DNA from: a virus | Lineage: Duplodnaviria; Heunggongvirae; Uroviricota; Caudoviricetes | Strand: one strand, 5' to 3' | Virus record (IMG/VR): IMGVR_UViG_2698536395_000029 | Length of the DNA: 15,001 nucleotides | In this document: in pieces, positions 1-13,783 of the stretch | How the letters are laid out: each line of letters starts with the position of its first letter | Position numbering within the stretch: the stretch's first letter is position 1 | Made by a program: the position numbers and the translations under genes | The notes under the pieces: model-generated | What the model was told of the DNA's origin: nothing | The model's database searches: none | Seen by the model: the letters and a program-made list of their open reading frames with translations, nothing else

Positions 1-165
1 ATGGCAAAGCCGATCATCACGCTCAATGGCCTAAAAATCGTCATTATGTTGGGAATGCTGGTCATTATTCTCTGCGGTATCCGTTTTGCCGCCGAGATCA
101 TCGTGCCGTTTATTCTCGCATTATTTATTGCTGTTATATATAACTTATTTCGCATAACACATTGA
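1..165 (+). pseudogene. tqsA: 5' fragment of an AI-2E family transporter gene (TqsA/YdgG-like), interrupted by the inserted element
   Basis: ATG at 1; the first ~45 codons ([45 protein letters not shown]) read like the N-terminal membrane helix of E. coli TqsA as I recall it. After codon 45 the frame enters AT-rich sequence (IYNLFRITH) and stops at 163-165, 54 aa instead of ~340. Identification is from memory, not a search. Confidence 0.5.
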
Positions 166-186
166 TTTAATTAAATAATTAACACC

Positions 187-211
187 GCAAAAAGTGCCAA
201 AAATCGCAAAA
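187..211. promoter_or_regulatory. Phased A-tracts (probable intrinsically bent DNA) in the left arm
   Basis: gcAAAAAgtgccAAAAAtcgcAAAAtg: A4-5 tracts recurring at roughly 10-bp spacing, as in att arms and IHF-bent regions. Confidence 0.4.
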
Positions 212-233
212 TGACTACACCAGTGACTACACC
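212..233. repeat. Tandem direct repeat TGACTACACC x2 (12-bp period); candidate integrase arm-type site
   Basis: Exact 10-mer at 212-221 and 224-233, about 80-100 bp inside the inferred left junction. Confidence 0.5.
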
Positions 234-250
234 GTTCGGTGCACTGTATG

Positions 251-276
251 AAACAACGTGGAACAAATAGACACAA
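251..276 (+). promoter_or_regulatory. Phased hexamer array AAACAA-N4-GAACAA-N4-ACACAA (10-bp period)
   Basis: Hexamers at 251-256, 261-266 and 271-276. The 15-mer AACAACGTGGAACAA (252-266) recurs exactly at 7715-7729. Confidence 0.5.
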
Positions 277-344
277 GAAATATACAGGCGGATCATCTTT
301 CCAGGGGGAAGCACACCAATTCATGAGGGGCGTTAATGTCGATA

Positions 345-356
345 TGGGGATCCCCA
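345..356. repeat. 12-bp perfect palindrome TGGGGATCCCCA
   Basis: Reads identically on both strands. Followed at 361-377 by the inverted repeat CCGGAA-T5-TTCCGG. Confidence 0.6.
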
Positions 357-499
357 CCTACCGGAATTTTTTTCCGGTTAAACGTTAATCAGGCTGGTGG
401 GCTTTACCTGTTCGGTAGGTGTTATGATTATCGTAATACCTTTCCCCCAATGGGGTAAAAGCATCAACCGTAACGAAAGTCGTTATGGTTGCCACTGAT

Positions 500-577
500 A
501 CCCCAAATTTGGGTATCACGAGTAAGCCCCAAAATCTGGGTGTTACTCTTACTACCCAAACTACGGGTAGTTTCCGT
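500..577. repeat. Three tandem ~26-bp units, each a small CCCAAA...GGGT palindrome, ending in a 9-bp stem (AAACTACGG / CCGTAGTTT)
   Basis: Units 500-525 (taccccaaatttgggtatcacgagta), 526-551 (agccccaaaatctgggtgttactctt) and 552-577 (actacccaaactacgggtagtttccg). A related motif cccccaatgggg lies at 445-456. Confidence 0.6.
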
Positions 578-589
578 AGTTTCATGGTC

Positions 590-609
590 GAGTTGCAGAT
601 CTGCAACTC
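590..609. repeat. 20-bp perfect palindrome GAGTTGCAGATCTGCAACTC
   Basis: Exact reverse-complement symmetry centred on AGATCT. Confidence 0.7.
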
Positions 610-863
610 CCCCATTAACCACAGGCGAATTTCCGCCTTCGGTCATTCCTTAATCATCTGCGTAATCATAATGATTATTCAGCAAGCGCAATTTTGCGCT
701 TTGCTTAAAGTTCAGCGAGTTACCGCGCCGACTTCCTCAAATTGAGGTTTCCGAAAATATCAGCGGGTTAGCGATTAAGCTGACCATTAATTAAACTGCG
801 AAAATGTCGTAGTTGTGAGGGGTGTAGCCAACCCATTTTTGGGCCGTCGGGAATATCAACCAG

Positions 864-1145
864 TTACCGCCGCAACCGCTCCGGCTTCTTCCAGTGGTAC
901 GTGATTTTCTCCTTCTCCCGATACAGTTCAACGCGGCGATTGTAGGCCAGCATTTCAAGAACGCGGATCCGTATGTCGCGCATATCCGCATCATTAAGCT
1001 GGATACCATCACGGCGCATCACCTCAGCAACAACACGCGCATAATTTTCGGCTGTCACGCTGTCCGGCTGCGTGGTCTGTTCGTCAGCCTGCTGGCTGAT
1101 TCCAGAGACGCGGCGGATTAATCGCAGTATTTCGGCTTCTGTCAT
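864..1145 (-). CDS. Hypothetical protein (93 aa), last gene of the packaging operon
   Basis: ATG at 1145 preceded by GAGGT; begins 14 nt after the TerL stop on the same strand. No family recognised. Confidence 0.5.
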   Translation of the reverse strand: MTEAEILRLIRRVSGISQQADEQTTQPDSVTAENYARVVAEVMRRDGIQLNDADMRDIRIRVLEMLAYNRRVELYREKEKITYHWKKPERLRR

Positions 1146-1158
1146 GCTGCTGACCTCA

Positions 1159-2820
1159 TTACACCCCGCTAAATTCTTCCAGTTTCTGGCGGTGGCTGTC
1201 GCTTATATCAAAAGCAAAATCCTCATGCTCTGCCTGGAATGTACCAAACGCCATCAGCGCCGCTACGCTCGGGTCTATCTTGTTCGGTGATTTTTTCTTG
1301 TTCGGCTTGATATTGGCGTTCGCGTCACTCTGCATCACGACGTTACTCATCGACCAGGACAACACCGGATCGCCACGATGCACAATCACCCTGCGGTTAA
1401 CAAAAACTTCGAACGATTTCGCCGCCGGACTGAATCTGAGGTAGGTTTGCGGGAACGGCTCCACCTCAAAACCAGCCCCCTGTAATTGCGTCCTGAGATG
1501 CGTGGCGTTCCACGTATCAAAGCCCACCAGCCTGATATTAAATTTCTCCGCATCCTGCATGATGTCATCTCTGATCCGGTCGTAATCAATGCAGTCACCT
1601 GGCGTTGTGCGTATCCAGCCCGCTTTAGCCCACTGGCGATAGACAGCGCGGTTTTTATTGGCGGGGTTCTGTAGCTGGAACTCCGGCAGATAATGACGGG
1701 AAACCAGCATGATATTTTTACCGACCGGAAAGGCATAGCACACGCTGGAAATATCGCTGGTTGATGATAAGTCCAGCCCCGCGTAACACTCCTGCCCGTG
1801 TAAATCTTCCTCCGTGAACGTTCCGGCACACTCAGCCCATGCGCCGTTACCCATCCACGGGGTAGCCCCCTGGCACCAGATATTAAATCGCTTTGTCATC
1901 ATCTCCACCCACTGCGACGGAATACCCCGCGCTTTCTGGATGGTTGAGGCCAGTTTTTCACGATCGACGGAAACATCAATATTAGGGTTCGCCTTTATCC
2001 ACATCGCCGGATCATCAACCTCGTTTTCGTCGTCCAGCTCGTAAATCAGTACAAAAATTGAATCGTTAACCTCTTCGCCGTCCAGGATCTGGCAGCAATA
2101 ATCATAGTGCTGTTTACAGGCTGAAACGACGTTGCTGCCTGATGTGGTAATGGCAAATAACAGCCCTTCGGGACGTGCGCCCATCCCCAGCTCAAGCGCG
2201 GAATAAACGCCGTTATCGGGGTGCAAGTGGTATTCGTCCACGATGGAAAGGCTTGGGTTTGTTCCCTCGATGGTTGCCGCTTTTGCTGCCAGCGGCTTTA
2301 ACAGGCTGTTGCTTTTCGGGTGTATCACCTTATGCGCCTGAATATTCACCCGCCTGCGTAACGGTCGGGATAAAAGGCACATCTGACGCGCATCATCAAA
2401 GACGATCCGCGCCTGGTCACGGCTCACCGCTGCGGTGTAGATATCCTGCTGACCGTTCTCCATAATCAGAAACCAGTTAGCCAGAATCGCGGCGGTCGTG
2501 GATTTCGCATTTTTGCGCGGCACTTCGATAAAGGCGCTCGTGTATTTGCGCCGTCCGGTGGCCTTAACCTTAAAGCCGAGGATGCACGCAAAGGCGAACT
2601 GCTGCCACGGCTCCAGCTCAATGGGTCTGCCACGCATCGGTCCTTTTACGTGCGGGCACACCCTGGAAAAGGCAATAAACCGCTCCACAACCTCACGATC
2701 GAACGTGTAAAGGGGGCTTTTAAGGTCCGAAAAGTACCGTTTAACGGCCTGTTTCAGCCGTTTACAGGCCGGAATTTTGCCCGTTTTTACGTCTTCTGCG
2801 TACTTATTCCAGGCGGTCAA
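1159..2820 (-). CDS. terL: Terminase large subunit (Terminase_1-like ATPase/nuclease)
   Basis: 553 aa; Walker-A-like PRKNAKST near residue 100; size and position after TerS. Start per ORF track is TTG at 2820, overlapping the TerS stop; next in-frame ATG is ~60 codons in, so the exact start is uncertain. Confidence 0.9.
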   Translation of the reverse strand: MTAWNKYAEDVKTGKIPACKRLKQAVKRYFSDLKSPLYTFDREVVERFIAFSRVCPHVKGPMRGRPIELEPWQQFAFACILGFKVKATGRRKYTSAFIEVPRKNAKSTTAAILANWFLIMENGQQDIYTAAVSRDQARIVFDDARQMCLLSRPLRRRVNIQAHKVIHPKSNSLLKPLAAKAATIEGTNPSLSIVDEYHLHPDNGVYSALELGMGARPEGLLFAITTSGSNVVSACKQHYDYCCQILDGEEVNDSIFVLIYELDDENEVDDPAMWIKANPNIDVSVDREKLASTIQKARGIPSQWVEMMTKRFNIWCQGATPWMGNGAWAECAGTFTEEDLHGQECYAGLDLSSTSDISSVCYAFPVGKNIMLVSRHYLPEFQLQNPANKNRAVYRQWAKAGWIRTTPGDCIDYDRIRDDIMQDAEKFNIRLVGFDTWNATHLRTQLQGAGFEVEPFPQTYLRFSPAAKSFEVFVNRRVIVHRGDPVLSWSMSNVVMQSDANANIKPNKKKSPNKIDPSVAALMAFGTFQAEHEDFAFDISDSHRQKLEEFSGV

Positions 2821-3160
2821 GCTCGTCCTCTTCTTCTGTTTCCGGTGGGTTTTTACGGCGGCTTATCGGGTCAAAACCGAGCAAGGAGGCCATTTTTATC
2901 ATCACCCTTTCAGCGTCTGATTTCGCGCTTAATGCGGGGTTTCTGCTCTCGCCGCCCTGACTGTTAACAATGCTGAACCCGCGCGCCGCAAGGTCTGCGA
3001 CGGCTTTCCGGTAAATGGAGTAGTTGACACAATACAGTTCCAGATTGCTCCAGTCGGCGGGGGTCAGGTCTCCCCGTTCCGCAAGCTGCCGCGATTTTTC
3101 CCGCCACTGCTTCACGGCGATGTCATCCAGGTAGGCGGGGGCTTTCGGTGGTCTTGCCAT
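2804..3160 (-). CDS. terS: Terminase small subunit (P27-family-like)
   Basis: 118 aa; N-terminus MARPPKAPAYLDD and the YCVNYSIY motif are typical of P27-type TerS; sits immediately upstream of and overlapping TerL. Confidence 0.8.
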   Translation of the reverse strand: MARPPKAPAYLDDIAVKQWREKSRQLAERGDLTPADWSNLELYCVNYSIYRKAVADLAARGFSIVNSQGGESRNPALSAKSDAERVMIKMASLLGFDPISRRKNPPETEEEDELDRLE

Positions 3161-3448
3161 GCTTATTTTTCGTCAGATTATTTTTCAAAAAATTCCCGTG
3201 CATAAAAATTTGAGGAGGCGTTCGGTGCCCGGCGGGGTCGGGTTTGTCCTGAAAACGCCCCCCACCCCGTCATACAGCCTCATCAGCGATTGCGGAAACA
3301 TTCCATAACCTCGCGGTCACGGTCGGTTAATCGCTTCGCTGTGATGCGTTCTGCGCGTCCTGACGCTTTATCTTTATGCCCTGTTTCCTGTGTCTTCCAT
3401 GCGTCACGCTGCCTTATAAGTCCACGGATAAGGCGGTTTTGTTCCCGC
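3161..3448. other. Candidate cos (packaging) region between HNH and TerS
   Basis: 288-bp non-coding gap in the HNH-gap-TerS-TerL arrangement where HK97-like cos phages carry cos. Contains the G/C-rich tract ggtgcccggcggggtcgggtttgtcc (~3225-3250). Position-based inference only. Confidence 0.35.
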
Positions 3449-3889
3449 TCATTCATCAGCGTCATACATCCAGTTATTGCGGTTAGCGGCCCGTTCTTCC
3501 TCTTCACGAAATCCACCTGCGGCACGCTTGCTTTTTGTTGCCGGATCAAGCCACTTCGTTTTCTGGTTATGACACGCCTGGCACAATGGCTGATGGTTCC
3601 ATTCGGGCCAGAAGAGAACATCATCACCGCCATTAATCGGGATAATGTGATCCACCACCACGGCGGGCGTATATATCCCCTTCTCAAGGCATCGCACGCA
3701 TAACGGGTTTTTACTCAGATACATGGCGCGGTATTTTTCCCACTGTCTGGAGTACCCACGCGCGCGGCGGTGTCCTCGTCTGGCATCCTCTGCACGCCAT
3801 GCCGCCCGCCTGTGCTCCTCACACTTGCCGGACTTAACGCGCCTGTTACAGCCTGGTTCTGTACATCGTCTTAATGGTTGCCACGGCAT
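3449..3889 (-). CDS. HNH endonuclease (terminase-associated)
   Basis: 146 aa; cysteine pairs CTEPGC and CVRC, then DHIIP...N...W..NHQPLCQACHNQKT, an HNH signature. ATG at 3889 overlaps the connector stop. Confidence 0.9.
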   Translation of the reverse strand: MPWQPLRRCTEPGCNRRVKSGKCEEHRRAAWRAEDARRGHRRARGYSRQWEKYRAMYLSKNPLCVRCLEKGIYTPAVVVDHIIPINGGDDVLFWPEWNHQPLCQACHNQKTKWLDPATKSKRAAGGFREEEERAANRNNWMYDADE

Positions 3890-4185
3890 CAGTACACCCC
3901 CACATCACGGTAAGCCGTCCAGAGCGCGCCTATCGTCATGGGTACGCGCGTTTTTGCGTTATCCGCTACCAGCTGGCGATTCTCGTACAGGTGAGCGATA
4001 AACATCATGCAGCCAATCTTTATGGCTGGCGTGAACTCCAGCCCGTCATCAAAGCGCCTGCCTATATGTATCTGGCACGCCTCAAGCGATGCGGCAATGT
4101 ATCCGCTGATTAACTGGTCTTCCTCGTCGCCATCGATGCGGCAATGGAGTTTCACTTCTTCCAGGGTGATAAGTTCTTCTGTCAT
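3889..4185 (-). CDS. Head-tail connector protein (gp6-like)
   Basis: 98 aa; N-terminus MTEELITLEEVKLHCRIDGDEEDQLISGYIAAS matches the gp6-like connector pattern (LEE.K.HLRID.DDED.LI). SD GAGGG upstream; ATGA overlap with the adaptor gene. Confidence 0.75.
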   Translation of the reverse strand: MTEELITLEEVKLHCRIDGDEEDQLISGYIAASLEACQIHIGRRFDDGLEFTPAIKIGCMMFIAHLYENRQLVADNAKTRVPMTIGALWTAYRDVGVY

Positions 4186-4520
4186 TTTTCCGCGCCCTCA
4201 CGACAAAGAATTTCAAGGCGTGTCCTGGCGGCATCCGGCAGCGGCTGCCCGATGATATTCAGTACACGCCCCGCCAGCGGCCCCGTATTGACCTTTATCC
4301 GGCTGGTGGCGTTGATGTCCTTCCGGTACCGTATCCAGATCCTTACGGTACCAATCGCCAGCTCTGCACCCGATGAAATGGCCTCCTTGCTGCTGATCAT
4401 GTTCACGCTTGCCCAGAGTGTGTGACCGTCCTCCCACGTTTCGAGTATTTCGCCGGTTATATCCCTGGTCTGTTTCAGGGTCTGAATCGTTACCCTGTCA
4501 CGCAGTCGCCCTATGTTCAT
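4182..4520 (-). CDS. Head-tail adaptor / head-closure protein
   Basis: Start taken at internal ATG 4520 (MNIGRLRDRVTIQ), which has a GAGGGAG SD and an ATGA overlap with the portal stop; the track's longer ORF starts at 4562. The motif RIWIRYRKDI...LEILCRE fits the head-tail adaptor family. Confidence 0.65.
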   Translation of the reverse strand: MNIGRLRDRVTIQTLKQTRDITGEILETWEDGHTLWASVNMISSKEAISSGAELAIGTVRIWIRYRKDINATSRIKVNTGPLAGRVLNIIGQPLPDAARTRLEILCREGAEK

Positions 4521-5728
4521 TCCGGTTTTTCTCCCTCGCTGATTTTTACTTCCTGTTTCCATGCCTGGCTGAACTCATCACCACCATCACGCGGGGACAG
4601 CCCTTCACGTTCGCGGGCTTCGTTCGGGCACATAACGCCGGATTTGATGCCGCGTTCATAGGTGGCAAAGCGTTCGCCAGGTGTGGCCCGTAACAGGTCC
4701 GCGCTGTCAAACTCCACCTGATACCGGATACCAGGTACAGGCGAGGCCACCAGCAGGGCGTTTTTTATCTGCTGCTCAAAGTTCGCCAGCCACGGGCGCA
4801 TTGTCATGGTGAGAAATGCGCGGCTTGCCTCGCTGAAATTGCTGTAGGTGCTGTTGCTGTATTCCTGCAGAAAAATCGGCGAGACGTTGAACATTCGGGC
4901 GATGTCTTCAATGGTGAAGCGACGGGAGGCCAGCCATTCAGCATCCTGATTACTCATGCCCAGCTGCTGATAGCTCATACCCCCTTCAAGGATGGGCGTT
5001 TTTCCGGCGTTTCTGGCCCCTTTGTAGCGTTCCAGTGCGGCTAATGCCTGTTTGCCCTTCACGCCGTCCAGCCATTCGCCTGACGTGATAACCCCTGCCG
5101 CCATCATGCCATCACGCATCACGCTCGCGCCGTGGCGTTGTTGGGCCAGCCCAAGCCCCAGCGATTCGCGGCAGATGGTTACAGGTGAGCGCCCCATAAA
5201 ACCGTCATCCGTGGAGTAACGAAGGTGGAGAACCTCCCACGGTAAATAGTTGCGGGTGTTTCCGGTGTAGGCGTCAGTGATGCAGTAGCGCCAGTTGTGT
5301 TCGCCTGTCTGCTCCACGTTCACCGACTGCGGCGGGTAAGGATGTAAAGCCACCGGAAAACCATCACGCCCCCACTGAATCACCGCATAAGCATTACCGT
5401 TTAACAGGCAGTGGCGGATCATCATTCGCTTAAACTGGTAGGGGGTTTGCCATGCGTTCGGGCGCTCGTTGAGGATGTGATCGACCGGATGAGAATCAAG
5501 CCACTCGCGGGCCTCCTTCCCCTTCTCATTGCGTACCAGGTACAGGTAACACGGCATGGTAGCCACCGCCTCAGAGATGACCGTCACGGCGTTCATGACG
5601 GCGGGCAGTGATTCCGCTGTCCCCGATGATACGTACTCACCCGCCCCCGTGTTCGATGTGCCAGCCAGCGCCATAAACTCATCAAGCGTCATGCTGCGCT
5701 GCTCTTTTTTTCTTCTGAAAGGCCACAT
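4517..5728 (-). CDS. Portal protein (HK97 family)
   Basis: 403 aa; length, composition and position between protease and adaptor; ATG at 5728 two nt after the protease stop. Confidence 0.85.
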   Translation of the reverse strand: MWPFRRKKEQRSMTLDEFMALAGTSNTGAGEYVSSGTAESLPAVMNAVTVISEAVATMPCYLYLVRNEKGKEAREWLDSHPVDHILNERPNAWQTPYQFKRMMIRHCLLNGNAYAVIQWGRDGFPVALHPYPPQSVNVEQTGEHNWRYCITDAYTGNTRNYLPWEVLHLRYSTDDGFMGRSPVTICRESLGLGLAQQRHGASVMRDGMMAAGVITSGEWLDGVKGKQALAALERYKGARNAGKTPILEGGMSYQQLGMSNQDAEWLASRRFTIEDIARMFNVSPIFLQEYSNSTYSNFSEASRAFLTMTMRPWLANFEQQIKNALLVASPVPGIRYQVEFDSADLLRATPGERFATYERGIKSGVMCPNEAREREGLSPRDGGDEFSQAWKQEVKISEGEKPE

Positions 5729-5729
5729 A

Positions 5730-6302
5730 TCACACCCCCGCTAAATCCGCCCACCAGCGGCGATTATCCGCACGCGGCATTTTTTCGGGGTGCTGCTCGT
5801 ACAGGGAGCGGCGGGCCAGCTCCACGCCGGAATCAGGGTAAGCCGGTACGGATGTGACGGTAATTTCGTACAGTTCCGCAACCAGCACGGTGCGCACGCA
5901 TGGATCTGTTGTGGTATCCCATACATCCTTACGGGAACGAAAGCCAAAGCTCATGCCGGATATATCACCACGTTTAACCAGTTCGATAACGTCCCGCCCT
6001 GTGCTGGTATCCGGTGGGGTCAGTTCAAAGCGTAACCCTGTTTCGTCCTCTTCCAGTTTCAGCGTGCCGGAACGGGTACGCCCCAGCAACATGCTGTGGT
6101 CATGCTCATACAGGCCGCGAACGTCATTACCCGCCGCAAGCCATTCAGTAAACGCTCCCCGCTGGAATTTTTCGTAAAACTCCCCCCATAGCAGCTCTGA
6201 AAGCTTATCCCAGCGAACAACGTAGCCTGTAAGCGTGTTGCTGGCGCTGGTGGTGATTTCCGATGACCGGATTTCCATACTCTTCATAATTTTTTCACCC
6301 AT
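5730..6302 (-). CDS. Prohead maturation protease (HK97 / U35-S78 family)
   Basis: 190 aa; motifs GYVVRWDKLS...GAF...LYEHD typical of HK97 prohead protease; lies directly after the capsid gene. Start may be ATG 6302 or ATG 6287. Confidence 0.8.
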   Translation of the reverse strand: MGEKIMKSMEIRSSEITTSASNTLTGYVVRWDKLSELLWGEFYEKFQRGAFTEWLAAGNDVRGLYEHDHSMLLGRTRSGTLKLEEDETGLRFELTPPDTSTGRDVIELVKRGDISGMSFGFRSRKDVWDTTTDPCVRTVLVAELYEITVTSVPAYPDSGVELARRSLYEQHPEKMPRADNRRWWADLAGV

Positions 6303-6311
6303 AAAACACTA

Positions 6312-6331
6312 AAGGGGCTTTTAAGCCCCTT
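6312..6331 (-). terminator. Stem-loop with T-rich tail between capsid and protease (likely partial terminator/attenuator)
   Basis: AAGGGGC-ttttaa-GCCCCTT; on the minus strand the hairpin is followed by TTTAGTGTTTTAT, 10 nt after the capsid stop. Confidence 0.4.
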
Positions 6332-6341
6332 CTGTATGCTG

Positions 6342-7499
6342 TTAATCGTCGTCCTGTGGCAGTTCCAGAATCTTGATCGCGTTCGAATCCACCACGCCAC
6401 CGCCTAAATATTTCTGCGTGAAAATTTTGATGAAGCCCGGCTCTGTGAGGTTGTCCGGTCTGGTGCGAACACCTGTTTCGTGATCAACAATGTAGTAACC
6501 GCGTTTGAAGTCACCCAGGGCAATAACGTTATCAGGCATAAACTCCAGATATTCGACCGGAAGGCCCAGCAACGTATCAGGATCACCCGCCTGTAAACGG
6601 TCGCGCCAGATATAATCACCGTTCGCGTTCTTCACCTTCTGAAGTTTTGCCGCCGTCGTGGAGTTAACCACCCAGACCGCGTTTTTGCGGTATTTTTTAC
6701 GTAATGCAAATTTCAGGTCGATCAGCGGGTCCGCAGATGTCCACGCCAGAGATTCGGAAGGTTTAATTACCTGCAACGTACCAAAATCACGCTCTTTGTC
6801 GTTCTTCTCTGCACGGGGTACGGATAAAAAACCTTTTGCTTTTTTGTCACCGTCGCCCACAACCAGATCGCTTTCTTCGGTTTCCGTGAAGGTGTCGCCA
6901 ATCTCACCCGTCAGCCATGAAAGGATGTCCACATCGGAAAAATCCACGATTTCCTGTGTGGTGCGCGGGTACGCATAGACCGGATACAGCTTAATGCTCA
7001 CCTCGTTAATCTGCGGGGGGCTGGTCTGTTCGCGTGCCTTACCCTCTTCACCGTGGTTAACGGTCGCACCGCCAGCGGAAACAAGCTGCTTAAACTCGTT
7101 GCTGCTGATTTTCTTCACGGTACAGATGCGGCGCATGGTGGATTCATCCGCCAGCATTCGCATGATTTCGGTGTTCAGTTCAGGGATAACGGTATAACCA
7201 CCATCAGCGGGAACGCCTGTACTTAATGCGCGGGTTTCACCTGTCAGAATGTAGTTGCGTAGTTCTGCGGGGTCAGTGGTCTGACTGCTTTTACCTGGCT
7301 TGCTGCGCTCTTCGTCTGCAATGGCTTCAAGGCGGGAAATGTCTTTATCGAGGGATTCAGCTTTAGCGCGTAATTCGTCAAATTTTGCGCCCTCAGCATC
7401 GTTAAGACTGCGGTTTTCTTTTTCCGCGTTCTCCAGCATGTCGCGCATCTGATTTTTAATGGCGGTTTTCTGCTGGCGTAATTCGATTATTCTCGGCAT
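6342..7499 (-). CDS. Major capsid protein (HK97 fold) with N-terminal coiled-coil delta/scaffold-like region
   Basis: Start set at ATG 7499 (MPRIIELRQQ); the track's upstream start at 7547 is GTG. The charged, helical N-terminal ~100 aa followed by a ~280-aa body is the HK97 pattern. Confidence 0.85.
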   Translation of the reverse strand: MPRIIELRQQKTAIKNQMRDMLENAEKENRSLNDAEGAKFDELRAKAESLDKDISRLEAIADEERSKPGKSSQTTDPAELRNYILTGETRALSTGVPADGGYTVIPELNTEIMRMLADESTMRRICTVKKISSNEFKQLVSAGGATVNHGEEGKAREQTSPPQINEVSIKLYPVYAYPRTTQEIVDFSDVDILSWLTGEIGDTFTETEESDLVVGDGDKKAKGFLSVPRAEKNDKERDFGTLQVIKPSESLAWTSADPLIDLKFALRKKYRKNAVWVVNSTTAAKLQKVKNANGDYIWRDRLQAGDPDTLLGLPVEYLEFMPDNVIALGDFKRGYYIVDHETGVRTRPDNLTEPGFIKIFTQKYLGGGVVDSNAIKILELPQDDD

Positions 7500-7506
7500 A
7501 AAAAAA

Positions 7507-7536
7507 GTCCTGGGGTTAAGTAAGGAACTCCAGGAC
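7507..7536 (-). promoter_or_regulatory. Hairpin whose 3' arm contains the capsid Shine-Dalgarno, followed by T7 and the capsid ATG
   Basis: Minus strand reads GTCCTGG-(16 nt)-CCAGGAC-TTTTTTT-ATG; the AGGA of the putative SD sits inside the stem. Confidence 0.45.
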
Positions 7537-7713
7537 GCGGCAAACACTCAACCGTTTTTCATAAGGAAATCAGTAATCGCACCGATCGTTTTCCCGCCTG
7601 GTAATGAATATTGGCGAGCACATTAACAGGCGGGAAAGTGGCCCCAGCGTCCTGGCACCACGGGCGAGAATACTCATGATTCAGTTCGGGTAAAATATGC
7701 CGATCCTGTCAGT

Positions 7714-7739
7714 GAACAACGTGGAACAACCACGAACAA
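7714..7739 (+). promoter_or_regulatory. Phased hexamer array GAACAA-cgtg-GAACAA-ccac-GAACAA (10-bp period) upstream of the head operon
   Basis: Hexamers at 7714-7719, 7724-7729 and 7734-7739, about 215-240 bp upstream of the capsid ATG. Confidence 0.5.
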
Positions 7740-7750
7740 ATAATTTACAA

Positions 7751-7779
7751 AAAATGACAAAAAGCCGGATTGCTCCGGC
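7751..7779 (-). terminator. Rho-independent terminator after the 74-aa orphan gene
   Basis: Minus strand GCCGGA-gcaa-TCCGGC followed by TTTTTGTCATTTT; 12 nt after the stop at 7791. Confidence 0.6.
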
Positions 7780-7790
7780 TGTATGCGTGC

Positions 7791-8015
7791 TCAGTCCCTG
7801 ATCCCTTTCAGAAATTCTATCAATGCATCTATCTGTTCAGGATTTACCGCCAGCATTTCACCGGATAGAGCACATCTAACAAAACCATGCTGATCCTTTT
7901 CAATCAGTGCGCCCGTCTCCAGGAATGCGCGGTAATCATTGATGCTCATCGTCTCCATGTTGTCAGCATGGTATTTATCACGCTGTTTTAATATCTCATC
8001 AAATTTCATCGGCAT
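7791..8015 (-). CDS. Hypothetical protein (74 aa), orphan gene bracketed by two near-identical terminators
   Basis: ATG at 8015 with AGAGGA SD 8 nt upstream (MPMKFDEILKQ...); the track's longer start at 8093 has no SD. Acidic, no family recognised. Confidence 0.55.
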   Translation of the reverse strand: MPMKFDEILKQRDKYHADNMETMSINDYRAFLETGALIEKDQHGFVRCALSGEMLAVNPEQIDALIEFLKGIRD

Positions 8016-8110
8016 TGTTTTTTCCTCTGTTGTGTCTGTTTGTTTCAGATAGTAACTATGCCAGACCGTGACGAAAACCCGGTAATGCGCCATACCGTTT
8101 CAACTGGTGC

Positions 8111-8133
8111 AAAAAAAGCCGGATTTCTCCGGC
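8111..8133 (-). terminator. Rho-independent terminator after the PerC-like gene
   Basis: Minus strand GCCGGA-gaaa-TCCGGC followed by TTTTTTT; nearly identical to the hairpin at 7764-7779. Confidence 0.65.
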
Positions 8134-8140
8134 TGTGTGA

Positions 8141-8413
8141 TTAGCTGTCCTGGTAATTGCGCCATATTTCATCACCAGCACCATCTATCCCCATTTCGGC
8201 ATAAGTGCGATCGACTGCCTTTTTCAGGTCTCCGTAATTATCCGGTGGCTCCGGTGGCCTCTGTGCCTTCCTGCAACATTCCAGCCGTCGCATCGTAACC
8301 TGATGCCGTTCCTTGTCTGTCTCCACCAGCAGCATGACTTCACCCCATCGCGCCGCCGCCCTCCGGTAAAAGCCTTTCGCCTCGAGTTCTTCCGCTATGC
8401 GGTCATGTACCAT
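8141..8413 (-). CDS. PerC-family-like transcriptional regulator (90 aa)
   Basis: Start taken at ATG 8413 (MVHDRIAEEL) with GAGGGGG SD. The motif AEELEAKGFYRRAAARWGEV...MRRLEC resembles the PerC/Pch signature (A..LE..G.WRRAA..W). From memory. Confidence 0.5.
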   Translation of the reverse strand: MVHDRIAEELEAKGFYRRAAARWGEVMLLVETDKERHQVTMRRLECCRKAQRPPEPPDNYGDLKKAVDRTYAEMGIDGAGDEIWRNYQDS

Positions 8414-8423
8414 CGCCACCCCC

Positions 8424-8834
8424 TCAGAACGGAATACCGTCACCGTAAGGGTCATCGCCTCCCGCTGGTGGCTGATTACCCTGTGTGCCTGTGGTTTTGC
8501 GTCTGTTCCCGCCAGGAAGTGCCGCACGGGCACTGATTACGCTGTCTGCAATAACCTGATAACCCTGCCGCGTTTCCCCATTCTGTCCGGTCCACTGGCT
8601 GACCTGCATCGTGCCGGATACGCTGGCAACGTCGCCTTTTTGATGTTTAGCCAGGAAGTCGGCCTGCTTACCAAATGCGATGACCGATAGCCATAACGTC
8701 GCCTGCCCATCCTGCGCCTGACTACATGGCAGCGATACCGCCATACGCGCCAGCGTCATCGGTGTACCCTTGCTGGTCTGTTTTACCTGCGGGTCGTCCA
8801 CCAGCCGCCCGTAAGCTGCTATCTGTGCTGTCAT
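8424..8834 (-). CDS. ssb: Single-stranded DNA-binding protein
   Basis: 136 aa; the OB-fold core aligns with E. coli SSB landmarks (LWLSVIAFGKQADFLAKHQKGD vs [22 protein letters not shown]); Gly/Pro/Gln-rich linker; acidic tail DDPYGDGIPF like the SSB DDDIPF tip. Confidence 0.8.
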   Translation of the reverse strand: MTAQIAAYGRLVDDPQVKQTSKGTPMTLARMAVSLPCSQAQDGQATLWLSVIAFGKQADFLAKHQKGDVASVSGTMQVSQWTGQNGETRQGYQVIADSVISARAALPGGNRRKTTGTQGNQPPAGGDDPYGDGIPF

Positions 8835-9109
8835 GATTCCACCTCTCCGGTTTTAACGTTGATGGTTGTTACCTGTTCCGCTTCGGCAATCTCCCGCTCT
8901 GTCAGCGTGGCAAAATTTGCCGCCGTCGTGGTCATGAATGCGCTTATCAGTTCGGGATGTGCTTTCGCGTATCCTTCCCCCGCGTGGCGGTCTATCGTTC
9001 TGATTGCCACCTTTAAAGCGTGCTCTGTCATGTCTAACGCGCGATATTTCGGTTCTGTTCTGTCTCTGCGTTTTTTGAGTGATTTATTAAATTTCCCTGA
9101 AGTGTGCAT
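8831..9109 (-). CDS. Hypothetical protein (92 aa), first gene after the origin
   Basis: ATG at 9109; stop overlaps the SSB start (ATGA). No family recognised. Confidence 0.5.
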   Translation of the reverse strand: MHTSGKFNKSLKKRRDRTEPKYRALDMTEHALKVAIRTIDRHAGEGYAKAHPELISAFMTTTAANFATLTEREIAEAEQVTTINVKTGEVES

Positions 9110-9158
9110 ATTTATTTTTACCCCCTCGTTTAAAAAGTTTTGAGTTGTGCCTCCCCTT

Positions 9159-9382
9159 GTCTACCTTATCTACCTTAGTGGCCCTCATACCAGTAATGGC
9201 GCGGCTTTCAGCTGGGTAGAGTGCTTTTATCCACTATCTACCCCGTGTCTACCTCCCTGTCTGATTCAGGTAAAATCAGGTAGAGAGGGTAGATAGTGGG
9301 TAGACAGTAAAAAAAGGCTATCTACCTAACTTAATGCACTGAATTAAATGTATTTTTCTTTACTCAGGTAGACAGGGTAGAC
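9159..9382. repeat. Iteron-type replication origin
   Basis: At least 11 copies of the 7-mer GGTAGA[C/T/G] or its complement in both orientations (9159, 9168, 9215, 9236, 9247, 9279, 9288, 9299, 9320, 9367, 9376), often at 9-11 bp spacing, flanking an AT-rich stretch at 9330-9366. Lies directly downstream of the primase stop. Confidence 0.75.
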
Positions 9383-9397
9383 AGCAATTACAAAAAA

Positions 9398-11152
9398 TTA
9401 TAAAAACGCGTCGCACTCGTCTGTTGTTATTGCGTTAGTCTGCGTTACTCCCTTAACTTTCCGCGTAATATATTCATGTCCGTAAACTTTCGCGGCTGGC
9501 TTCATAGCCTTGCCAAAGTCATTTACGTTTAGCGGTTTGCTCCTGCCTGCGTACGCCATAAACGCCAGATAGACGCGGTAAAGGCTGTTTCTGGTCGTGT
9601 ACTTCACTGAATCGCCACCGCCGCCCATCATCAGGCCGCGTGCTTCCTCCAGAAAATTCAGGAACTGGCAAAACTCAATAACCGGATCCGTCTGTTGCTT
9701 TATTGCCAGAGCTTCATCACCGTCACGCTGTTCCAGTAGTAAAGCCCGTGCCTTCTCAGGGTCGGTAAAGTTCGCCAGCAATCGGCGGATAATGACAGGG
9801 ATTTCAGCCGCGATCTTTTCCGGTAGCTCCCTGTCTTTTTCGGCCTCACTGACGATATTGTCGAAACGGAAAATCACGCGACGACGTGCCACACCTCCGG
9901 CCCGTTCGGTGAATATCATCGGGTTATTGTTGGTCGCCAGCACCACCGCCCTGATTACAGCCGTGAAACGCTTTTCGTATTTCGGGTTAATTTCCACGGG
10001 GTCACCGCCCGTGATTTTCTTGATGCCCGTTCCTTCGCCTGTATATTTCGGCTGGTCAGCCAGGACGATAAGACGACTCCCGACAACCTGCGCACGTCCA
10101 CCAGCATCATCAAGCGATGTCATTTCAGCGCTTACCGTGTTCTGTTTCCCTGCCAGAAGGCTGGCTATGTGCGTGAATGTACTTTTACCGCTCCCGCCGT
10201 CTCCGGTGGCCTCAATAAACATCTGCCAGTCGTACCGGTTCGCCATAATCATGTACAGCGCGGCACATATACGCATCATCTTGCGCGGGTCTTTTCCGGC
10301 TGCGTGCTCAAGCCATTTATGAAAGTTTGGCGCGTTATCGCGGATGTTCTCCCCTGGTGCTGGTGGCGTGTACTCAATGCCGTTGTGCGTGGTGATCCAG
10401 TTCTCCGGCGTGTGCGGGGAAAATTCCCCCGTTTTCAGGTCAAGCGCACCATTGGCGAACGGCAGCAAATCGCCGGACGGCTCGCCCATTGGTTCGGCAA
10501 TAACTTTTAACGCTTCCACGGCGTTATTGATTACGCGCTTGCTGAAAGTGGCCCTGTGCTCTGAATAGATCGCCACCATTTCGCGGCTAAGTTCCATTGT
10601 GCTGACCGGACACCATACCCCGCCGCGCCATACGTGAACGATTTCACTTTCAGGATGTACGCAAACGCCATCAAAGCGATCGGCAAGCAGCTGCGCGCGC
10701 TCACTGTCCGCCATCTGCGAAAGTTGCGCCTTTTGCTTTACCGGAAGCTCAATGACCAGACCATCAGAAAGATTCTGGCGCTCACGAGCCAGATATTCGC
10801 GCCAGTTCTCCACCTTCTGACCGTGCATACCATCAGGGTAAAAATTTGCATCCTGTACGCCTGCCGCCGCCAGCTTCTGACCAATCGCCTTTATCATTAC
10901 TGGCGCAAGATATCCGGCCCTGAATATGCGCACGGATTTTCTGCCTTCCGGCACAATTTGCAGCTTATCCAGTTCGGATAACTGCTGCTCCCCAAGCCAC
11001 ACAGGAGGCTCATTATCTCCGGCCATACGCGCGTCATGTTCCTGCCATTGTTTTGCGTGTGACCAGGCATCACTACCCGCAAAAATAATGACTTCTGTTT
11101 CTTTGTGTTTTATGCCGCGTGACTGCTGTTTTACGTTCGGTGCCAGTTTCAT
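9398..11152 (-). CDS. Primase/helicase replication protein (P4-alpha-like; D5-type NTPase C-terminal domain)
   Basis: 584 aa; Walker A GDGGSGKST at ~residue 318 with the surrounding D5/P4-family helicase context; N-terminal primase-like region; iteron origin immediately downstream. Confidence 0.85.
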   Translation of the reverse strand: MKLAPNVKQQSRGIKHKETEVIIFAGSDAWSHAKQWQEHDARMAGDNEPPVWLGEQQLSELDKLQIVPEGRKSVRIFRAGYLAPVMIKAIGQKLAAAGVQDANFYPDGMHGQKVENWREYLARERQNLSDGLVIELPVKQKAQLSQMADSERAQLLADRFDGVCVHPESEIVHVWRGGVWCPVSTMELSREMVAIYSEHRATFSKRVINNAVEALKVIAEPMGEPSGDLLPFANGALDLKTGEFSPHTPENWITTHNGIEYTPPAPGENIRDNAPNFHKWLEHAAGKDPRKMMRICAALYMIMANRYDWQMFIEATGDGGSGKSTFTHIASLLAGKQNTVSAEMTSLDDAGGRAQVVGSRLIVLADQPKYTGEGTGIKKITGGDPVEINPKYEKRFTAVIRAVVLATNNNPMIFTERAGGVARRRVIFRFDNIVSEAEKDRELPEKIAAEIPVIIRRLLANFTDPEKARALLLEQRDGDEALAIKQQTDPVIEFCQFLNFLEEARGLMMGGGGDSVKYTTRNSLYRVYLAFMAYAGRSKPLNVNDFGKAMKPAAKVYGHEYITRKVKGVTQTNAITTDECDAFL

Positions 11153-11448
11153 TTTTTACCCCTGAATACGTTAAGCATCTTTTTTATTTCCTGAATATTG
11201 GCGCGTGCTTTCTTCCTGCTGGTTGGTTTACTGCGGGGCGCTGCCTGTACCAGAGAAAAATCACGCCGAAACTGATAAACAGGCATCACGCAATCATATT
11301 CGTAGCCTTCACGGCGGTAGGTTACGCGCCGTTCTTCCACGCCCTTAATCATTACCGTGCCGCCGTACTGGTCGCGGTAAATATCACCGCGCGTAAATTT
11401 AGGGTGAGTGTTGCCACTGGCAGTTAAGCCAGAATATTTAAGTTTCAT
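11149..11448 (-). CDS. Hypothetical basic protein (99 aa)
   Basis: ATG at 11448 with GGAG SD; stop overlaps the primase ATG (ATGA). Confidence 0.55.
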   Translation of the reverse strand: MKLKYSGLTASGNTHPKFTRGDIYRDQYGGTVMIKGVEERRVTYRREGYEYDCVMPVYQFRRDFSLVQAAPRSKPTSRKKARANIQEIKKMLNVFRGKK

Positions 11449-11453
11449 TATTT

Positions 11454-11687
11454 TTATTCTCCGGTGTGCTGTTCTTTATATCTGTCGTGCAATAGATCTA
11501 TTTCTTGCAGTTCCATTATTACAGGCTCAAGAAGCGTTATTAATGCCGTGGCAATTCTTGATTTTTGTTTGTCGCGTTCATTGTCGCCAAGTGTTTCAAG
11601 CCATATGCGCAATATTTCCAGCATGTTTTCACTGTGAGAAAGTGCAAGAAATGCGCGGTATATTGTTTCGTGGTAAATATCACGCAT
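11454..11687 (-). CDS. Hypothetical protein (77 aa)
   Basis: ATG at 11687 with GAGGATG SD; overlaps the upstream gene by 8 nt. Confidence 0.5.
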   Translation of the reverse strand: MRDIYHETIYRAFLALSHSENMLEILRIWLETLGDNERDKQKSRIATALITLLEPVIMELQEIDLLHDRYKEQHTGE

Positions 11688-11913
11688 GGCTTACATCCTC
11701 AGGAAATTTTCTTCTGTAATGCGCCTCTGCCACATATTCCGCATAATCGGCGGCGATATTCAGTACATCAAGCCCCGTTGATTTATATTCTCTCGTGGAA
11801 AGTAAGAAAAAAGCCGCTCTAATAAGCTCTGGCATTGACGAAAGCGCATCAGCCGCATCATCAGGAACGCCGGAAAATTCCTGTTTCAGGGAATTAAAAC
11901 GATCATCACGCAT
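11680..11913 (-). CDS. Hypothetical acidic protein (77 aa)
   Basis: Start set at ATG 11913 (MRDDRFNS) with GGGGGTGG SD; the track's 11940 start lacks an SD and overlaps the upstream gene. Confidence 0.5.
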   Translation of the reverse strand: MRDDRFNSLKQEFSGVPDDAADALSSMPELIRAAFFLLSTREYKSTGLDVLNIAADYAEYVAEAHYRRKFPEDVSHA

Positions 11914-12145
11914 AACCACCCCCATTTTCACAATCAGCAATCAGGATGGCTTTAGCCTCATTCAGCGCCATATCAGCACTAAGTTGCATAACCGCCAGCG
12001 AATGAGGAACGAAAGCCCCGGCATATTCTGTTTCACTGGTGTCGTGCTTATGCGCCCTGTCAGCAATAACAGAAATATCAATCAGCGCATGCATTAGCGT
12101 TATGATGGCTTCGGCGGCTGCGTCCGGACGGGTGTTATTGCACAT
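11906..12145 (-). CDS. Hypothetical protein (79 aa)
   Basis: ATG at 12145 preceded by CAGGAGG; overlaps the stop of the 68-aa gene. Confidence 0.5.
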   Translation of the reverse strand: MCNNTRPDAAAEAIITLMHALIDISVIADRAHKHDTSETEYAGAFVPHSLAVMQLSADMALNEAKAILIADCENGGGYA

Positions 12146-12341
12146 GGCACACCTCCTGACGAATACGGGCAGCGAATACCATCACGCAGCCAGCCGGAGA
12201 TTGCTGGCGTGCTTCCTGTTCGCTGGTGGCCTCAATGGTAATCACGCGCGGTTGTGCCGTGCTCAGGGCGATAAAACGCCAGATGTATTTATTCAGGTCG
12301 TGCGAGTCCCGCCCTTGCGGGTGTGTGGTATGATTTCTCAT
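12135..12341 (-). CDS. Hypothetical protein (68 aa); first gene of the replication operon, possibly Icd-like
   Basis: ATG at 12341 with GAGGT SD. It is the only plausible part of the 342-aa track ORF; the upstream 274 codons are Cys/Arg/Ser-rich antisense of real plus-strand genes. The motif YIWRFIALS...EARQQ...VFAAR vaguely recalls Icd-like proteins (low confidence). Confidence 0.5.
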   Translation of the reverse strand: MRNHTTHPQGRDSHDLNKYIWRFIALSTAQPRVITIEATSEQEARQQSPAGCVMVFAARIRQEVCHVQ

Positions 12342-12379
12342 AGCTACCTCGATACTTTCGCTATCGTTGGTGGTTAGAA

Positions 12380-12410
12380 GCCCTGCGAGTGGTAACGACA
12401 CTTGCGGGGC
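12380..12410. promoter_or_regulatory. Imperfect 12-bp inverted repeat in the divergent control region
   Basis: GCCCTGCGAGTG-gtaacga-CACTTGCGGGGC (10/12 complementary at DNA level); lies in the 5' leader of the minus-strand operon. Confidence 0.45.
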
Positions 12411-12438
12411 TTTGCATTTATGCACCTTGATAATCTCA

Positions 12439-12474
12439 AGGTGTGGCCCACTATATGCTTTAGGTGTGGCCCAC
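12439..12474. promoter_or_regulatory. Two exact 13-bp direct repeats AGGTGTGGCCCAC (candidate operator) overlapping a sigma70-like promoter
   Basis: Copies at 12439-12451 and 12462-12474, 23 bp apart; TTGATA at 12427-12432 and TATACT at 12506-12511 are plausible promoter hexamers upstream of the gene starting at 12541. Confidence 0.5.
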
Positions 12475-12540
12475 GTCAAGGGTTTTATTTGTGCTTTTTC
12501 TGTGTATACTGTCCCCCACCAATCCAACAGAGGAATAGAA

Positions 12541-12720
12541 ATGGCAACGGGTACAACAAACGCAAAATCACAAGCTCTAAAGGCTCGTGTACCACACGAA
12601 ATAGTAAACGCCATGGAATCAGTGAAAGAATCAGGCGAAAGCACATCACAATTCATCATTGCGTCAATGCAAGGCGAGATCAAACGCCGCCAGCGCCGCA
12701 AGGCCAAAGAATCAGAATAA
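12541..12720 (+). CDS. Small DNA-binding protein, probable ribbon-helix-helix fold (59 aa)
   Basis: ATG at 12541 with AGAGGAA SD. The pattern LKARVPHEIVNAMESVKESGESTSQFIIASMQGEI (strand, helix, G-S/T turn, helix) and a basic tail fit CopG/Arc-type RHH proteins. Confidence 0.55.
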   Translation: MATGTTNAKSQALKARVPHEIVNAMESVKESGESTSQFIIASMQGEIKRRQRRKAKESE

Positions 12721-12762
12721 TCACTATCAGCGCCGTGGTGTGAGGTATTACGGCGCATTGCT

Positions 12763-12951
12763 ATGCAGGACAACACAATGACCGATAAAGAATTGACCAA
12801 AACATTATCACCGGCACGGAAAAGACGGCGCAGAAAGATAGAACATGAATCAGAAAGATTCGCGCCATGTGCTTTTGCCCTTGAGCAATTCCTTAAAGAG
12901 TACAGGGAAAAGCGCTCATTGCAGGTATGGCAACGAACTGAACCAGACTGA
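12763..12951 (+). CDS. Hypothetical basic protein (62 aa; start may be 12778)
   Basis: ORF 43 nt downstream of the RHH gene on the same strand, with a poly-basic stretch ARKRRRRK; the SD is weak, so coding status is uncertain. Confidence 0.4.
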   Translation: MQDNTMTDKELTKTLSPARKRRRRKIEHESERFAPCAFALEQFLKEYREKRSLQVWQRTEPD

Positions 12952-13036
12952 TTGCATTGCCCACCAGCCTGATAGCGGCTATCATCCCCGTGCTTATGTT
13001 TGGGATCACACACACAAACGGCGCAGCGGGTTATCT

Positions 13037-13064
13037 GTTCAGAAAGGCGGCTCCATTTCGGGGC
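13037..13064 (+). terminator. Rho-independent terminator ending the plus-strand RHH operon
   Basis: GCGGCTCC-atttc-GGGGCCGC (8-bp stem with one G-U pair) followed by T7. Confidence 0.75.
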
Positions 13065-13220
13065 CGCTTTTTTTATGCCTGAAAAACCCCAATTTTGTGG
13101 TTTTCCAGTCTCACCAGGGCGAACGAATCCCCGCCCACGTTCTGGCGTATATTCAATCTTCATGGTTATAGCTCTGTGTTCAGATGATTGATGTGTGGCG
13201 GCTGTGTGCCGCCAGCGTGA

Positions 13221-13409
13221 TTAATGAACTGCCTTGCAGCTATCCTTCCAGGCCAGAACCTCGGATAAAGACCAGCCAACGGAACGACCGCCAAGTTTAC
13301 GACGTGATGGGAATTGTCCGGCCTTTTCCAGGCGGTAGCGGCATGAGCGGCTAAGGCCTGTTAGCTTTTCGCATTCTTTTTCACGTATAAACCGATCAGT
13401 GCTTAACAC
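13221..13409 (-). CDS. alpA: AlpA-family transcriptional regulator / excisionase-like HTH protein
   Basis: 62 aa; LTGLSRSCRYRLEKAGQFPSRRKLGGRSVGWSLSEVLAW matches the AlpA signature (TGLSRST.YR....G.FP.P.KLG.R.V.W...EV..W). Start is GTG at 13409 with AAGGGGG SD. Confidence 0.85.
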   Translation of the reverse strand: MLSTDRFIREKECEKLTGLSRSCRYRLEKAGQFPSRRKLGGRSVGWSLSEVLAWKDSCKAVH

Positions 13410-13568
13410 TATTGCCCCCTTTCGTTTCTTAAAGAGTTATTTCGTGTTCTATTGCGTTGGGATGTGTCTGATTGTGTCAGGATGATTCAGAGTTGGCAAA
13501 TGTTGAGGTCGTATGGTTTACAGAAACAGGAATAATCAGGATAAAATCATTTAAATTCATGTTAATAC

Positions 13569-13600
13569 AAAGGCATAAAATATTGTTTCATGCCTTTTTT
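13569..13600 (+). terminator. Terminator-like hairpin on the plus strand in the int-alpA intergenic region
   Basis: AAAGGCAT-(13-nt loop)-ATGCCTTT followed by TTTTTTCTC; no plus-strand gene upstream, so function unclear. Confidence 0.3.
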
Positions 13601-13692
13601 CTCGCCATTTAAAGAGTGATTCGCTAGTGTATAAAAAACCAGTAACACATTAAAAATCAGCCACTTATAAATCCGTACACTTTTTCGCCTCT

Positions 13693-13737
13693 TGTTCGTA
13701 GTTGTTCCGCATTGTTGCTCATTGTTGCATGTTGTAT
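13693..13737 (-). promoter_or_regulatory. Array of four to five TTGTT[C/G] hexamers at exact 10-bp phasing (minus strand GAACAA/CAACAA)
   Basis: Hexamers at 13693, 13703, 13713, 13723 and a degenerate one at 13732; about 285-330 bp upstream of alpA and 50-90 bp downstream of the int stop. Confidence 0.55.
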
Positions 13738-13750
13738 CTGTTCGCATATC

Positions 13751-13766
13751 CAGTATGCGCATACTG
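13751..13766. promoter_or_regulatory. 16-bp perfect palindrome CAGTATGCGCATACTG
   Basis: Exact dyad symmetry 18 bp downstream of the int stop; no U-run on the int strand, so more likely an operator than a terminator. Confidence 0.45.
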
Positions 13767-13783
13767 AAAAAACACGAAAAAAA

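Follow-up and report, generated by a model that had tools for sequence, protein, structure and literature searches.

Capsid-forming PICIs (cf-PICIs) are recently described, widespread satellites that build their own heads and borrow only tails. Packaging that is exclusive to such an element presupposes a private cos site, and the locus described here raises the question of where that site lies: is the DNA between an HNH endonuclease gene and a small terminase gene the place at which the terminase of the satellite cuts, and, if so, is the site its own or a copy of that of a helper phage? We addressed this question in a 15,001-nt stretch of viral DNA (IMG/VR record IMGVR_UViG_2698536395_000029), the whole of which we refer to as the window.

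Pfam and PHROG searches identified the window as a cf-PICI with its genes on the minus strand (Table 1). The HNH protein is 38% identical to HK97 gp74 (BLASTP, E 1e-18) and the large terminase (TerL) is 27% identical to HK97 gp2 over 506 residues (E 2e-47); the small terminase (TerS) exhibited no detectable similarity to HK97 gp1, either in sequence comparison or through PHROG. We presume that the HNH protein is a cofactor for cos cleavage and that TerS is the subunit that recognises cos. Many E. coli genomes carry chromosomal copies that match the gap region at 100% identity, and it was found in 489 of 5,426 complete genomes. In RefSeq, one identical copy on a chromosome is annotated with, in addition, an integrase, a primase, an SSB and a PerC-type regulator, and with no tail or lysis genes. 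An island of ~15 kb that carries an integrase and a replication module as well as capsid, protease, portal and head-tail connector genes together with hnh-terS-terL, without tail or lysis genes, has the gene content by which cf-PICIs are defined (Alqurainy et al. 2022 preprint; He et al. 2025 preprint). Directly after terL there is also a 93-aa open-reading frame (864-1145, minus strand; phrog_1561, E 1.5e-55), which is apparently absent from some relatives with an identical TerS, for example L013.

Table 1. Head and packaging genes of the window and elements of the predicted cos site. Offsets are counted from the predicted cut; information content (bits, maximum 2) is from 176 distinct sequences and is inflated for blocks that were used as search patterns, including the A/T block.
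Feature	Position	Strand	Support or remark
Major capsid protein	6342-7547	(-)	Pfam/PHROG
S78 prohead protease	5730-6302	(-)	Pfam/PHROG
Portal	4517-5728	(-)	Pfam/PHROG
Head completion protein	4182-4562	(-)	Pfam/PHROG
gp6-like connector	3889-4185	(-)	Pfam/PHROG
HNH endonuclease, HK97 gp74 homologue	3449-3889	(-)	Pfam HNH, E 1.8e-8; phrog_144
Small ORF, 57 aa, MNEREQNRL...REVMECFRNR	3283-3456	(-)	RefSeq CDS; start overlaps HNH stop (ATGAATGA)
G-box GGGGTGGGGGGCGTTTTCAGGAC	3246-3268	(-)	-54 to -32; 1.57 bits mean
Spacer AAACCCGACCCCGCCGGGCAC	3225-3245	(-)	5' 16 nt (-31 to -16) hypervariable, 0.84 bits
Predicted 10-nt cohesive end CGAACGCCTC, C-rich 10-mer	3215-3224	(-)	1.48 bits
A/T-rich block CTCAAATTTTTATGCACGGGAATTTTTTGAAAAATAA	3178-3214	(-)	+1 to +37, predicted first-packaged end; 1.67-1.93 bits (search pattern)
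CACGGGAATTTTTTG within the A/T block	3186-3200	(-)	+15 to +29, place of the mapped HK97 TerS binding site
Variable leader and ribosome-binding region before the terS start codon	3161-3177	(-)	0.75 bits
Small terminase TerS, P27 / Terminase_4 family	2804-3160	(-)	PF05119, E 1.3e-23; phrog_83
Large terminase TerL, HK97 type, ATPase and nuclease domains	1159-2820	(-)	Pfam TerL_ATPase, TerL_nuclease

An earlier note on this DNA had proposed a cos site in the 288-bp interval between HNH and TerS (3161-3448), and had pointed to a G/C-rich tract within it. The interval is correct as a pair of open-reading frame boundaries (HNH, TerS and TerL calls), and the tract is present at ~3215-3270. The gene order on which that proposal drew, HNH, site, terS, terL, holds as well, but the HNH gene is not the immediate neighbour of terS: ~174 bp of the 288 bp are taken up by a small open-reading frame (RefSeq start at 3465, WP_000174068), so that HNH and terS do not adjoin and the true non-coding gap measures 122 bp (3161-3282). 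This small open-reading frame stays intact in 125 of 126 related loci, and in 122 loci its end lies 14 nt ahead of the G-box. It is 57 aa long in E. coli and 50 aa long in Klebsiella-type elements, both forms sharing the N-terminal motif MNE... and the C-terminal motif ...RE(V/L)(M/R)ECFRNR, and it is absent from the Pasteurella elements. The product is basic and matches phrog_3173 (E 6e-37), with no Pfam match. The position of the gene suggests a role in packaging for its product.

Homologous regions were gathered in four ways, by TerS protein similarity, by TerL similarity among phage records, by a G-box pattern and by a degenerate A/T-block pattern, and the 176 distinct sequences in an ungapped alignment around the site were used for information content. 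Throughout these sequences conserved blocks alternate with hypervariable spacer whilst the spacing of the blocks is fixed, and the same layout is found in the Pasteurella elements Pmp7 and Pmp8, in which TerL is only 68% identical. Each block was also seen in loci fetched by the other routes, as well as in Pmp7 and Pmp8. The 3' end of the spacer, GGCAC, is conserved (1.58 bits) and directly adjoins the cut predicted for the other strand, and the adjoining 10-mer has the family consensus C-R-M-C-Y-G-C-C-Y-C. A 28-mer of the A/T block, CTCAAATTTTTATGCACGGGAATTTTTT, is present in one copy in the window compared with 0 expected in shuffles. By analogy with lambda cosQ, the G-box possibly serves in the termination of packaging.

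The stretch formed by the spacer and the 10-mer (-31 to -1) exists in 91 distinct variants. Dyad symmetry in the spacer is weakly above that of shuffled sequences (mean best stem 3.37 vs. 2.89 ± 0.17; the observed mean was equalled or exceeded in 4 of 500 shuffles), and no fixed centre of symmetry was found across the spacer variants. Many of these variants (3230-3245 and equivalents, L002-L364) contain a short inverted repeat, such as CCCG..CGGG, CCTC..GAGG or GGTGCC-A-GGCACC. The spacer at 3230-3245 and the small basic phrog_3173 protein could be imagined as an additional layer of specificity, in which a fourth packaging factor is paired with a lineage-private DNA mark; this would stop co-resident cf-PICI lineages from packaging each other's DNA, but we think it unlikely.

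Two assemblies from relatives of the island break at this site. The first, vB_KppS-Ant (LR881103), is a linear record of 16,548 nt, for which virion DNA in lysates of K. pneumoniae DSM 30104 was sequenced (Nextera XT) and assembled (SPAdes) and for which the authors gave >99% identity to the host chromosome (PMC8006926). The record opens 22 nt ahead of terS and stops 12 nt past the G-box. Over flanks of 4,176 and 3,755 nt it is 100% identical to the chromosome of K. pneumoniae ATCC 13883, which between these flanks holds 69 extra bases that are absent from vB_KppS-Ant and equivalent to window 3177-3245. We take ATCC 13883 and DSM 30104 to be the same type strain. Libraries made by tagmentation usually fall short of either end of a molecule by some tens of bases. 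The genes of vB_KppS-Ant encode a capsid protein, protease, portal, connectors, HNH, TerS, TerL, integrase and primase; judged by this gene content and by the 100% identity to ATCC 13883, the record is packaged cf-PICI DNA and not the filamentous ssDNA prophage as which it was published (PMC8006926). It presumably corresponds to KpCIDSM30104, the DSM 30104 cf-PICI for which cohesive cos ends have been reported (He et al. 2025 preprint). After terL the record also contains a 2.3-kb CDS labelled tape measure protein, which is without a counterpart in the window.

The second is the metagenome contig IMGVR_UViG_3300022664_000095 (15,518 nt, composed of L256 at 1-14263 and L140 at 14264-15518), which starts with CTCAAATTTTTACGCACGG, ends with ...GCAAGGCAC (...GGCAC) and has no terminal repeat. 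Its first base is the equivalent of window position 3214 and its last base that of 3225. All integrated relatives (176 distinct sequences) read GGCAC, the 10-mer and then CTCAAATTTTT, and the contig therefore lacks exactly those 10 nt. A degenerate-motif scan of bulk metagenome contigs returned 105 loci, of which 0 started at the site, with no pile-up of ends; the base-level placement of the cut thus comes from one contig, and if the library of that contig was tagmented the 10-nt deficit would be a coincidence. Both breaks are in Klebsiella-type relatives, whose cos core differs from that of the window at several bases.

Other records were uninformative on ends. The IMG/VR contigs fetched by TerS similarity are mostly prophage predictions from isolate genomes, and OR845787 is a 1.6-kb low-coverage contig with 77% identity. 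PQ569648, a 106.5-kb Klebsiella phage record, was set aside, as the sequence upstream of its cf-PICI-like terS is unrelated and contains neither an HNH gene nor a cos. The cf-PICI-like terS and terL of this record (PQ569648.1, 87984-95642; TerL 82% identical) point to a chimeric assembly or to acquisition of both genes by a large phage.

For HK97 itself the cos site has been mapped: the overhangs are 3' and 10 nt long, TerS binds at +15 to +29 downstream of the cut and needs T16, a C:G pair at 21 and an A-tract at 24-29, and cleavage requires TerL and TerS and is stimulated by HNH (PMC11331095, PMC9410871). In the HK97 record, which opens with GTTTGAATTTAACGCTAACCCGATTTTTTTAG and closes with ...GGGCAGGGGGGGGGATC...ATGACCGCCGCCAAA, terS lies at base 50 and the HNH gene is found at the right end. 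When HK97 and the metagenome contig are aligned without gaps, HK97 +1 lies opposite the first base of the contig. Both HK97 and the Klebsiella-type cf-PICI relatives have ACGC at +12 to +15, where the window reads ATGC, and a GA with a T-tract behind it begins at +22 in HK97 and at +21 in the Klebsiella-type relatives and the contig, with the T-tract of the window running from +23. The distance of the G-run upstream of the left end is 42 vs. 44 nt in the HK97/cf-PICI comparison. Nucleotide alignment of the whole region with the HK97 cos is modest (z 2.8-3.5 above shuffles), so the case for an HK97-type site is one of layout and register and not of sequence identity; similarly, as the TerS proteins are not detectably similar, 3186-3200 is put forward as the TerS site by position only.

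We conclude with high confidence that window 3178-3268 is the island's own HK97-type cos. The proposal of a cos between HNH and terS is thereby borne out by the HK97-like TerL and HNH, by the assembly breaks in relatives and by the HK97 register, and the ends that had been expected at ~3200-3300 can be narrowed, since the predicted overhang falls within that range and the functional site is confined to ~3178-3268. The terminase probably nicks the minus strand at 3215|3214 and the plus strand at 3224|3225, leaving CGAACGCCTC-3' on the HNH-side end. The 3' polarity of this overhang is suggested by the loss, rather than duplication, of the 10-mer and by analogy with HK97, whilst the exact bases of cutting in this E. 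coli element are predicted from the ends of its relatives.

The breaks might instead be assembly artefacts at G/C homopolymers in an island that is packaged by the headful (pac) mode, or that has its cos elsewhere. The G and C runs of the region can lower sequencing coverage, and the break signal is present in two assemblies only, with no end pile-up among the bulk metagenome contigs. A headful genome, however, assembles as a circle or with a terminal overlap and not with a clean internal deficit such as that of the contig, which has no repeat at its termini. Different laboratories and methods produced the two breaks, which nonetheless bracket the same bases, and the 10-nt deficit has the length of the HK97 overhang and matches the left end of HK97 in register. 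Genome assemblies by the hundred cross the region without a break. Cohesive ends have also been reported experimentally for a Klebsiella relative (He et al. 2025 preprint), and the window contains no second copy of the motif. We regard an artefact of this kind as improbable.

Some E. coli relatives exhibit a second cos-like motif, ..GGGACCGCCCGCC(C/T)CGTCAAATTTTTACACCCGCG.., a few hundred bases beyond terL (L013:5323, L054:5785, L061:5788 and L079:6315 on the plus strand; L121:12812, L129:12515 and L165:10131 as reverse-complement offsets), which is absent from the window. It adjoins an apparent host junction, lacks the T-tract block, and could be a pseudo-cos or what is left of a tandem satellite.

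Alternatively, the gap could be no DNA cleavage site at all but punctuation of the operon: a promoter, an attenuator or terminator, or a structured leader in the mRNA through which the terminase genes are regulated. It does lie inside a co-directional late operon just upstream of terS, and its G-run and C-run can pair on paper, but the RNA of the gap folds no better than shuffled sequence (z -0.40; 63 of 200 shuffles fold at least as well) and a consensus fold contains 0 compensatory pairs. There is no terminator-like site in the gap, the sole promoter-like match is weak and on the opposite strand, and no credible Rfam match was obtained, the one hit (E 0.64, 21 bits vs. a gathering score of 50 bits) being in the HNH gene outside the gap. 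A regulatory role would, moreover, leave the breaks of the virion-derived and metagenome assemblies at the site unexplained, and we consider this reading very improbable.

Least probable of all is that the site is a copy of the helper phage cos, recognised by the helper terminase in the manner of P4 or the cos-type SaPIs: HK106 and HK446, the reported helpers of EcCIEDL933, carry the HK97 cos (96-99% identity), and the layout of that helper site resembles that of the window, but a distant-mode blastn search with the window gap as query found no HK97-like phage, the 10-mer is CGAACGCCTC here, where the HK97 record closes with the 10 bases CGCCGCCAAA, the +15 to +29 block is CACGGGAATTTTTTG here vs. 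CTAACCCGATTTTTT and is unlike at position 21, a position that the HK97 TerS needs for binding (PMC11331095), the TerS belongs to another family than that of HK97, and phage and cf-PICI packaging are mutually exclusive (Alqurainy et al. 2022 preprint). As the gap lacks BLAST-level similarity to the HK97-type cos of HK106 and HK446, we take the site to be the satellite's own and not a helper copy, which agrees with what the earlier note had suggested.

With the site at 3178-3268 as the island's own cos, packaging would most likely proceed as follows. After induction the island would replicate into concatemers, on which the P27-family TerS would bind the A/T-rich block beside terS at approximately +15 to +29 (3186-3200). 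The HK97-type TerL, with the help of HNH, would then nick both strands, the nicks being 10 bp apart and flanking CGAACGCCTC (3215-3224), which would result in 10-nt 3' cohesive ends. On the HK97 analogy, packaging would start on the terS side with 3214 as the first base (CTCAAATTTTT...), pass through terS and terL and continue round the unit-length genome, and would end at the next cos, so that the HNH gene, the small open-reading frame and the G-box enter the head last. The cohesive end and the terminase-binding block differ from those of the helper HK97-type cos, and the satellite terminase would for this reason package satellite DNA and not helper DNA.

The biology is what a specialist would expect of an HK97-type module. 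In our literature search, cf-PICI papers state that these elements have their own packaging module and cohesive ends, and we found no position or sequence of a cf-PICI cos in them. What is added here is that position, a predicted 10-mer and a conserved layout, the location itself being the expected one, narrowed with public data to within ~10 bases for the cut. The site may help to explain why helper and satellite packaging do not cross, and ~3178-3268 is a concrete target for mutagenesis and for cf-PICI-based delivery vectors. The layout, which is conserved from Escherichia and Klebsiella to Pasteurella, offers a signature with which cf-PICI cos sites can be found in genomes and viromes.

Amongst the closest known systems is the HK97 cos, with which the site shares the gene order HNH, cos, terS, terL, homologous TerL and HNH proteins, the succession of a G-run, ~42-44 nt, a C-rich 10-mer at the cut and an A/T-rich block, and, as predicted here, a cohesive end of 10 nt. 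It differs from HK97 in having no BLAST-level nucleotide similarity, with an unlike 10-mer and an unlike +15 to +29 block, in its TerS (P27/Terminase_4, phrog_83, vs. phrog_5601 in HK97) and in the conserved small open-reading frame between HNH and cos. Furthermore, the packaging genes come first in the packaged HK97 genome, whilst here the site lies inside a 15-kb satellite in which head genes precede HNH. The cf-PICIs EcCIEDL933 and KpCIDSM30104 are elements of the same type, in the order int, replication, capsid, protease, portal, connectors, hnh, terS, terL; packaging in cf-PICIs is self-encoded and exclusive (Alqurainy et al. 2022 preprint), and for KpCIDSM30104, cohesive ends are reported and the virion assembly breaks at the homologous site.

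The cos of lambda (cosQ-cosN-cosB, with a 12-nt 5' overhang and the IHF site I1) is likewise tripartite, its cut site being preceded by a conserved element and followed, ahead of the small-terminase gene, by a region to which terminase binds, but its overhang has another length and, if the polarity suggested here is correct, the opposite polarity, its terminase families are unlike and no HNH protein is involved. A lambda-type cos was rejected for the window on the HK97-type terminase, the 10-nt deficit and the gap of the window element, which has no match to the IHF consensus WATCAANNNNTTR. In Pasteurella Pmp7 (L084:775-787) and Pmp8 (L085:2586-2598) the bases spanning the predicted cut, AATCAAATTTTTA, match WATCAANNNNTTR perfectly, and the E. 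coli and Klebsiella variants read CCTCAAATTTTTA at the same bases, with two mismatches to this consensus. P4 and the cos-type SaPIs such as SaPIbov5, which borrow the cos of their helper, and the Rpp PICIs, which redirect the helper TerS, resemble the island in that the satellite carries a cos for its encapsidation; unlike in all of these, the cos described here is matched to the satellite's own terminase genes and is dissimilar to that of the helper.
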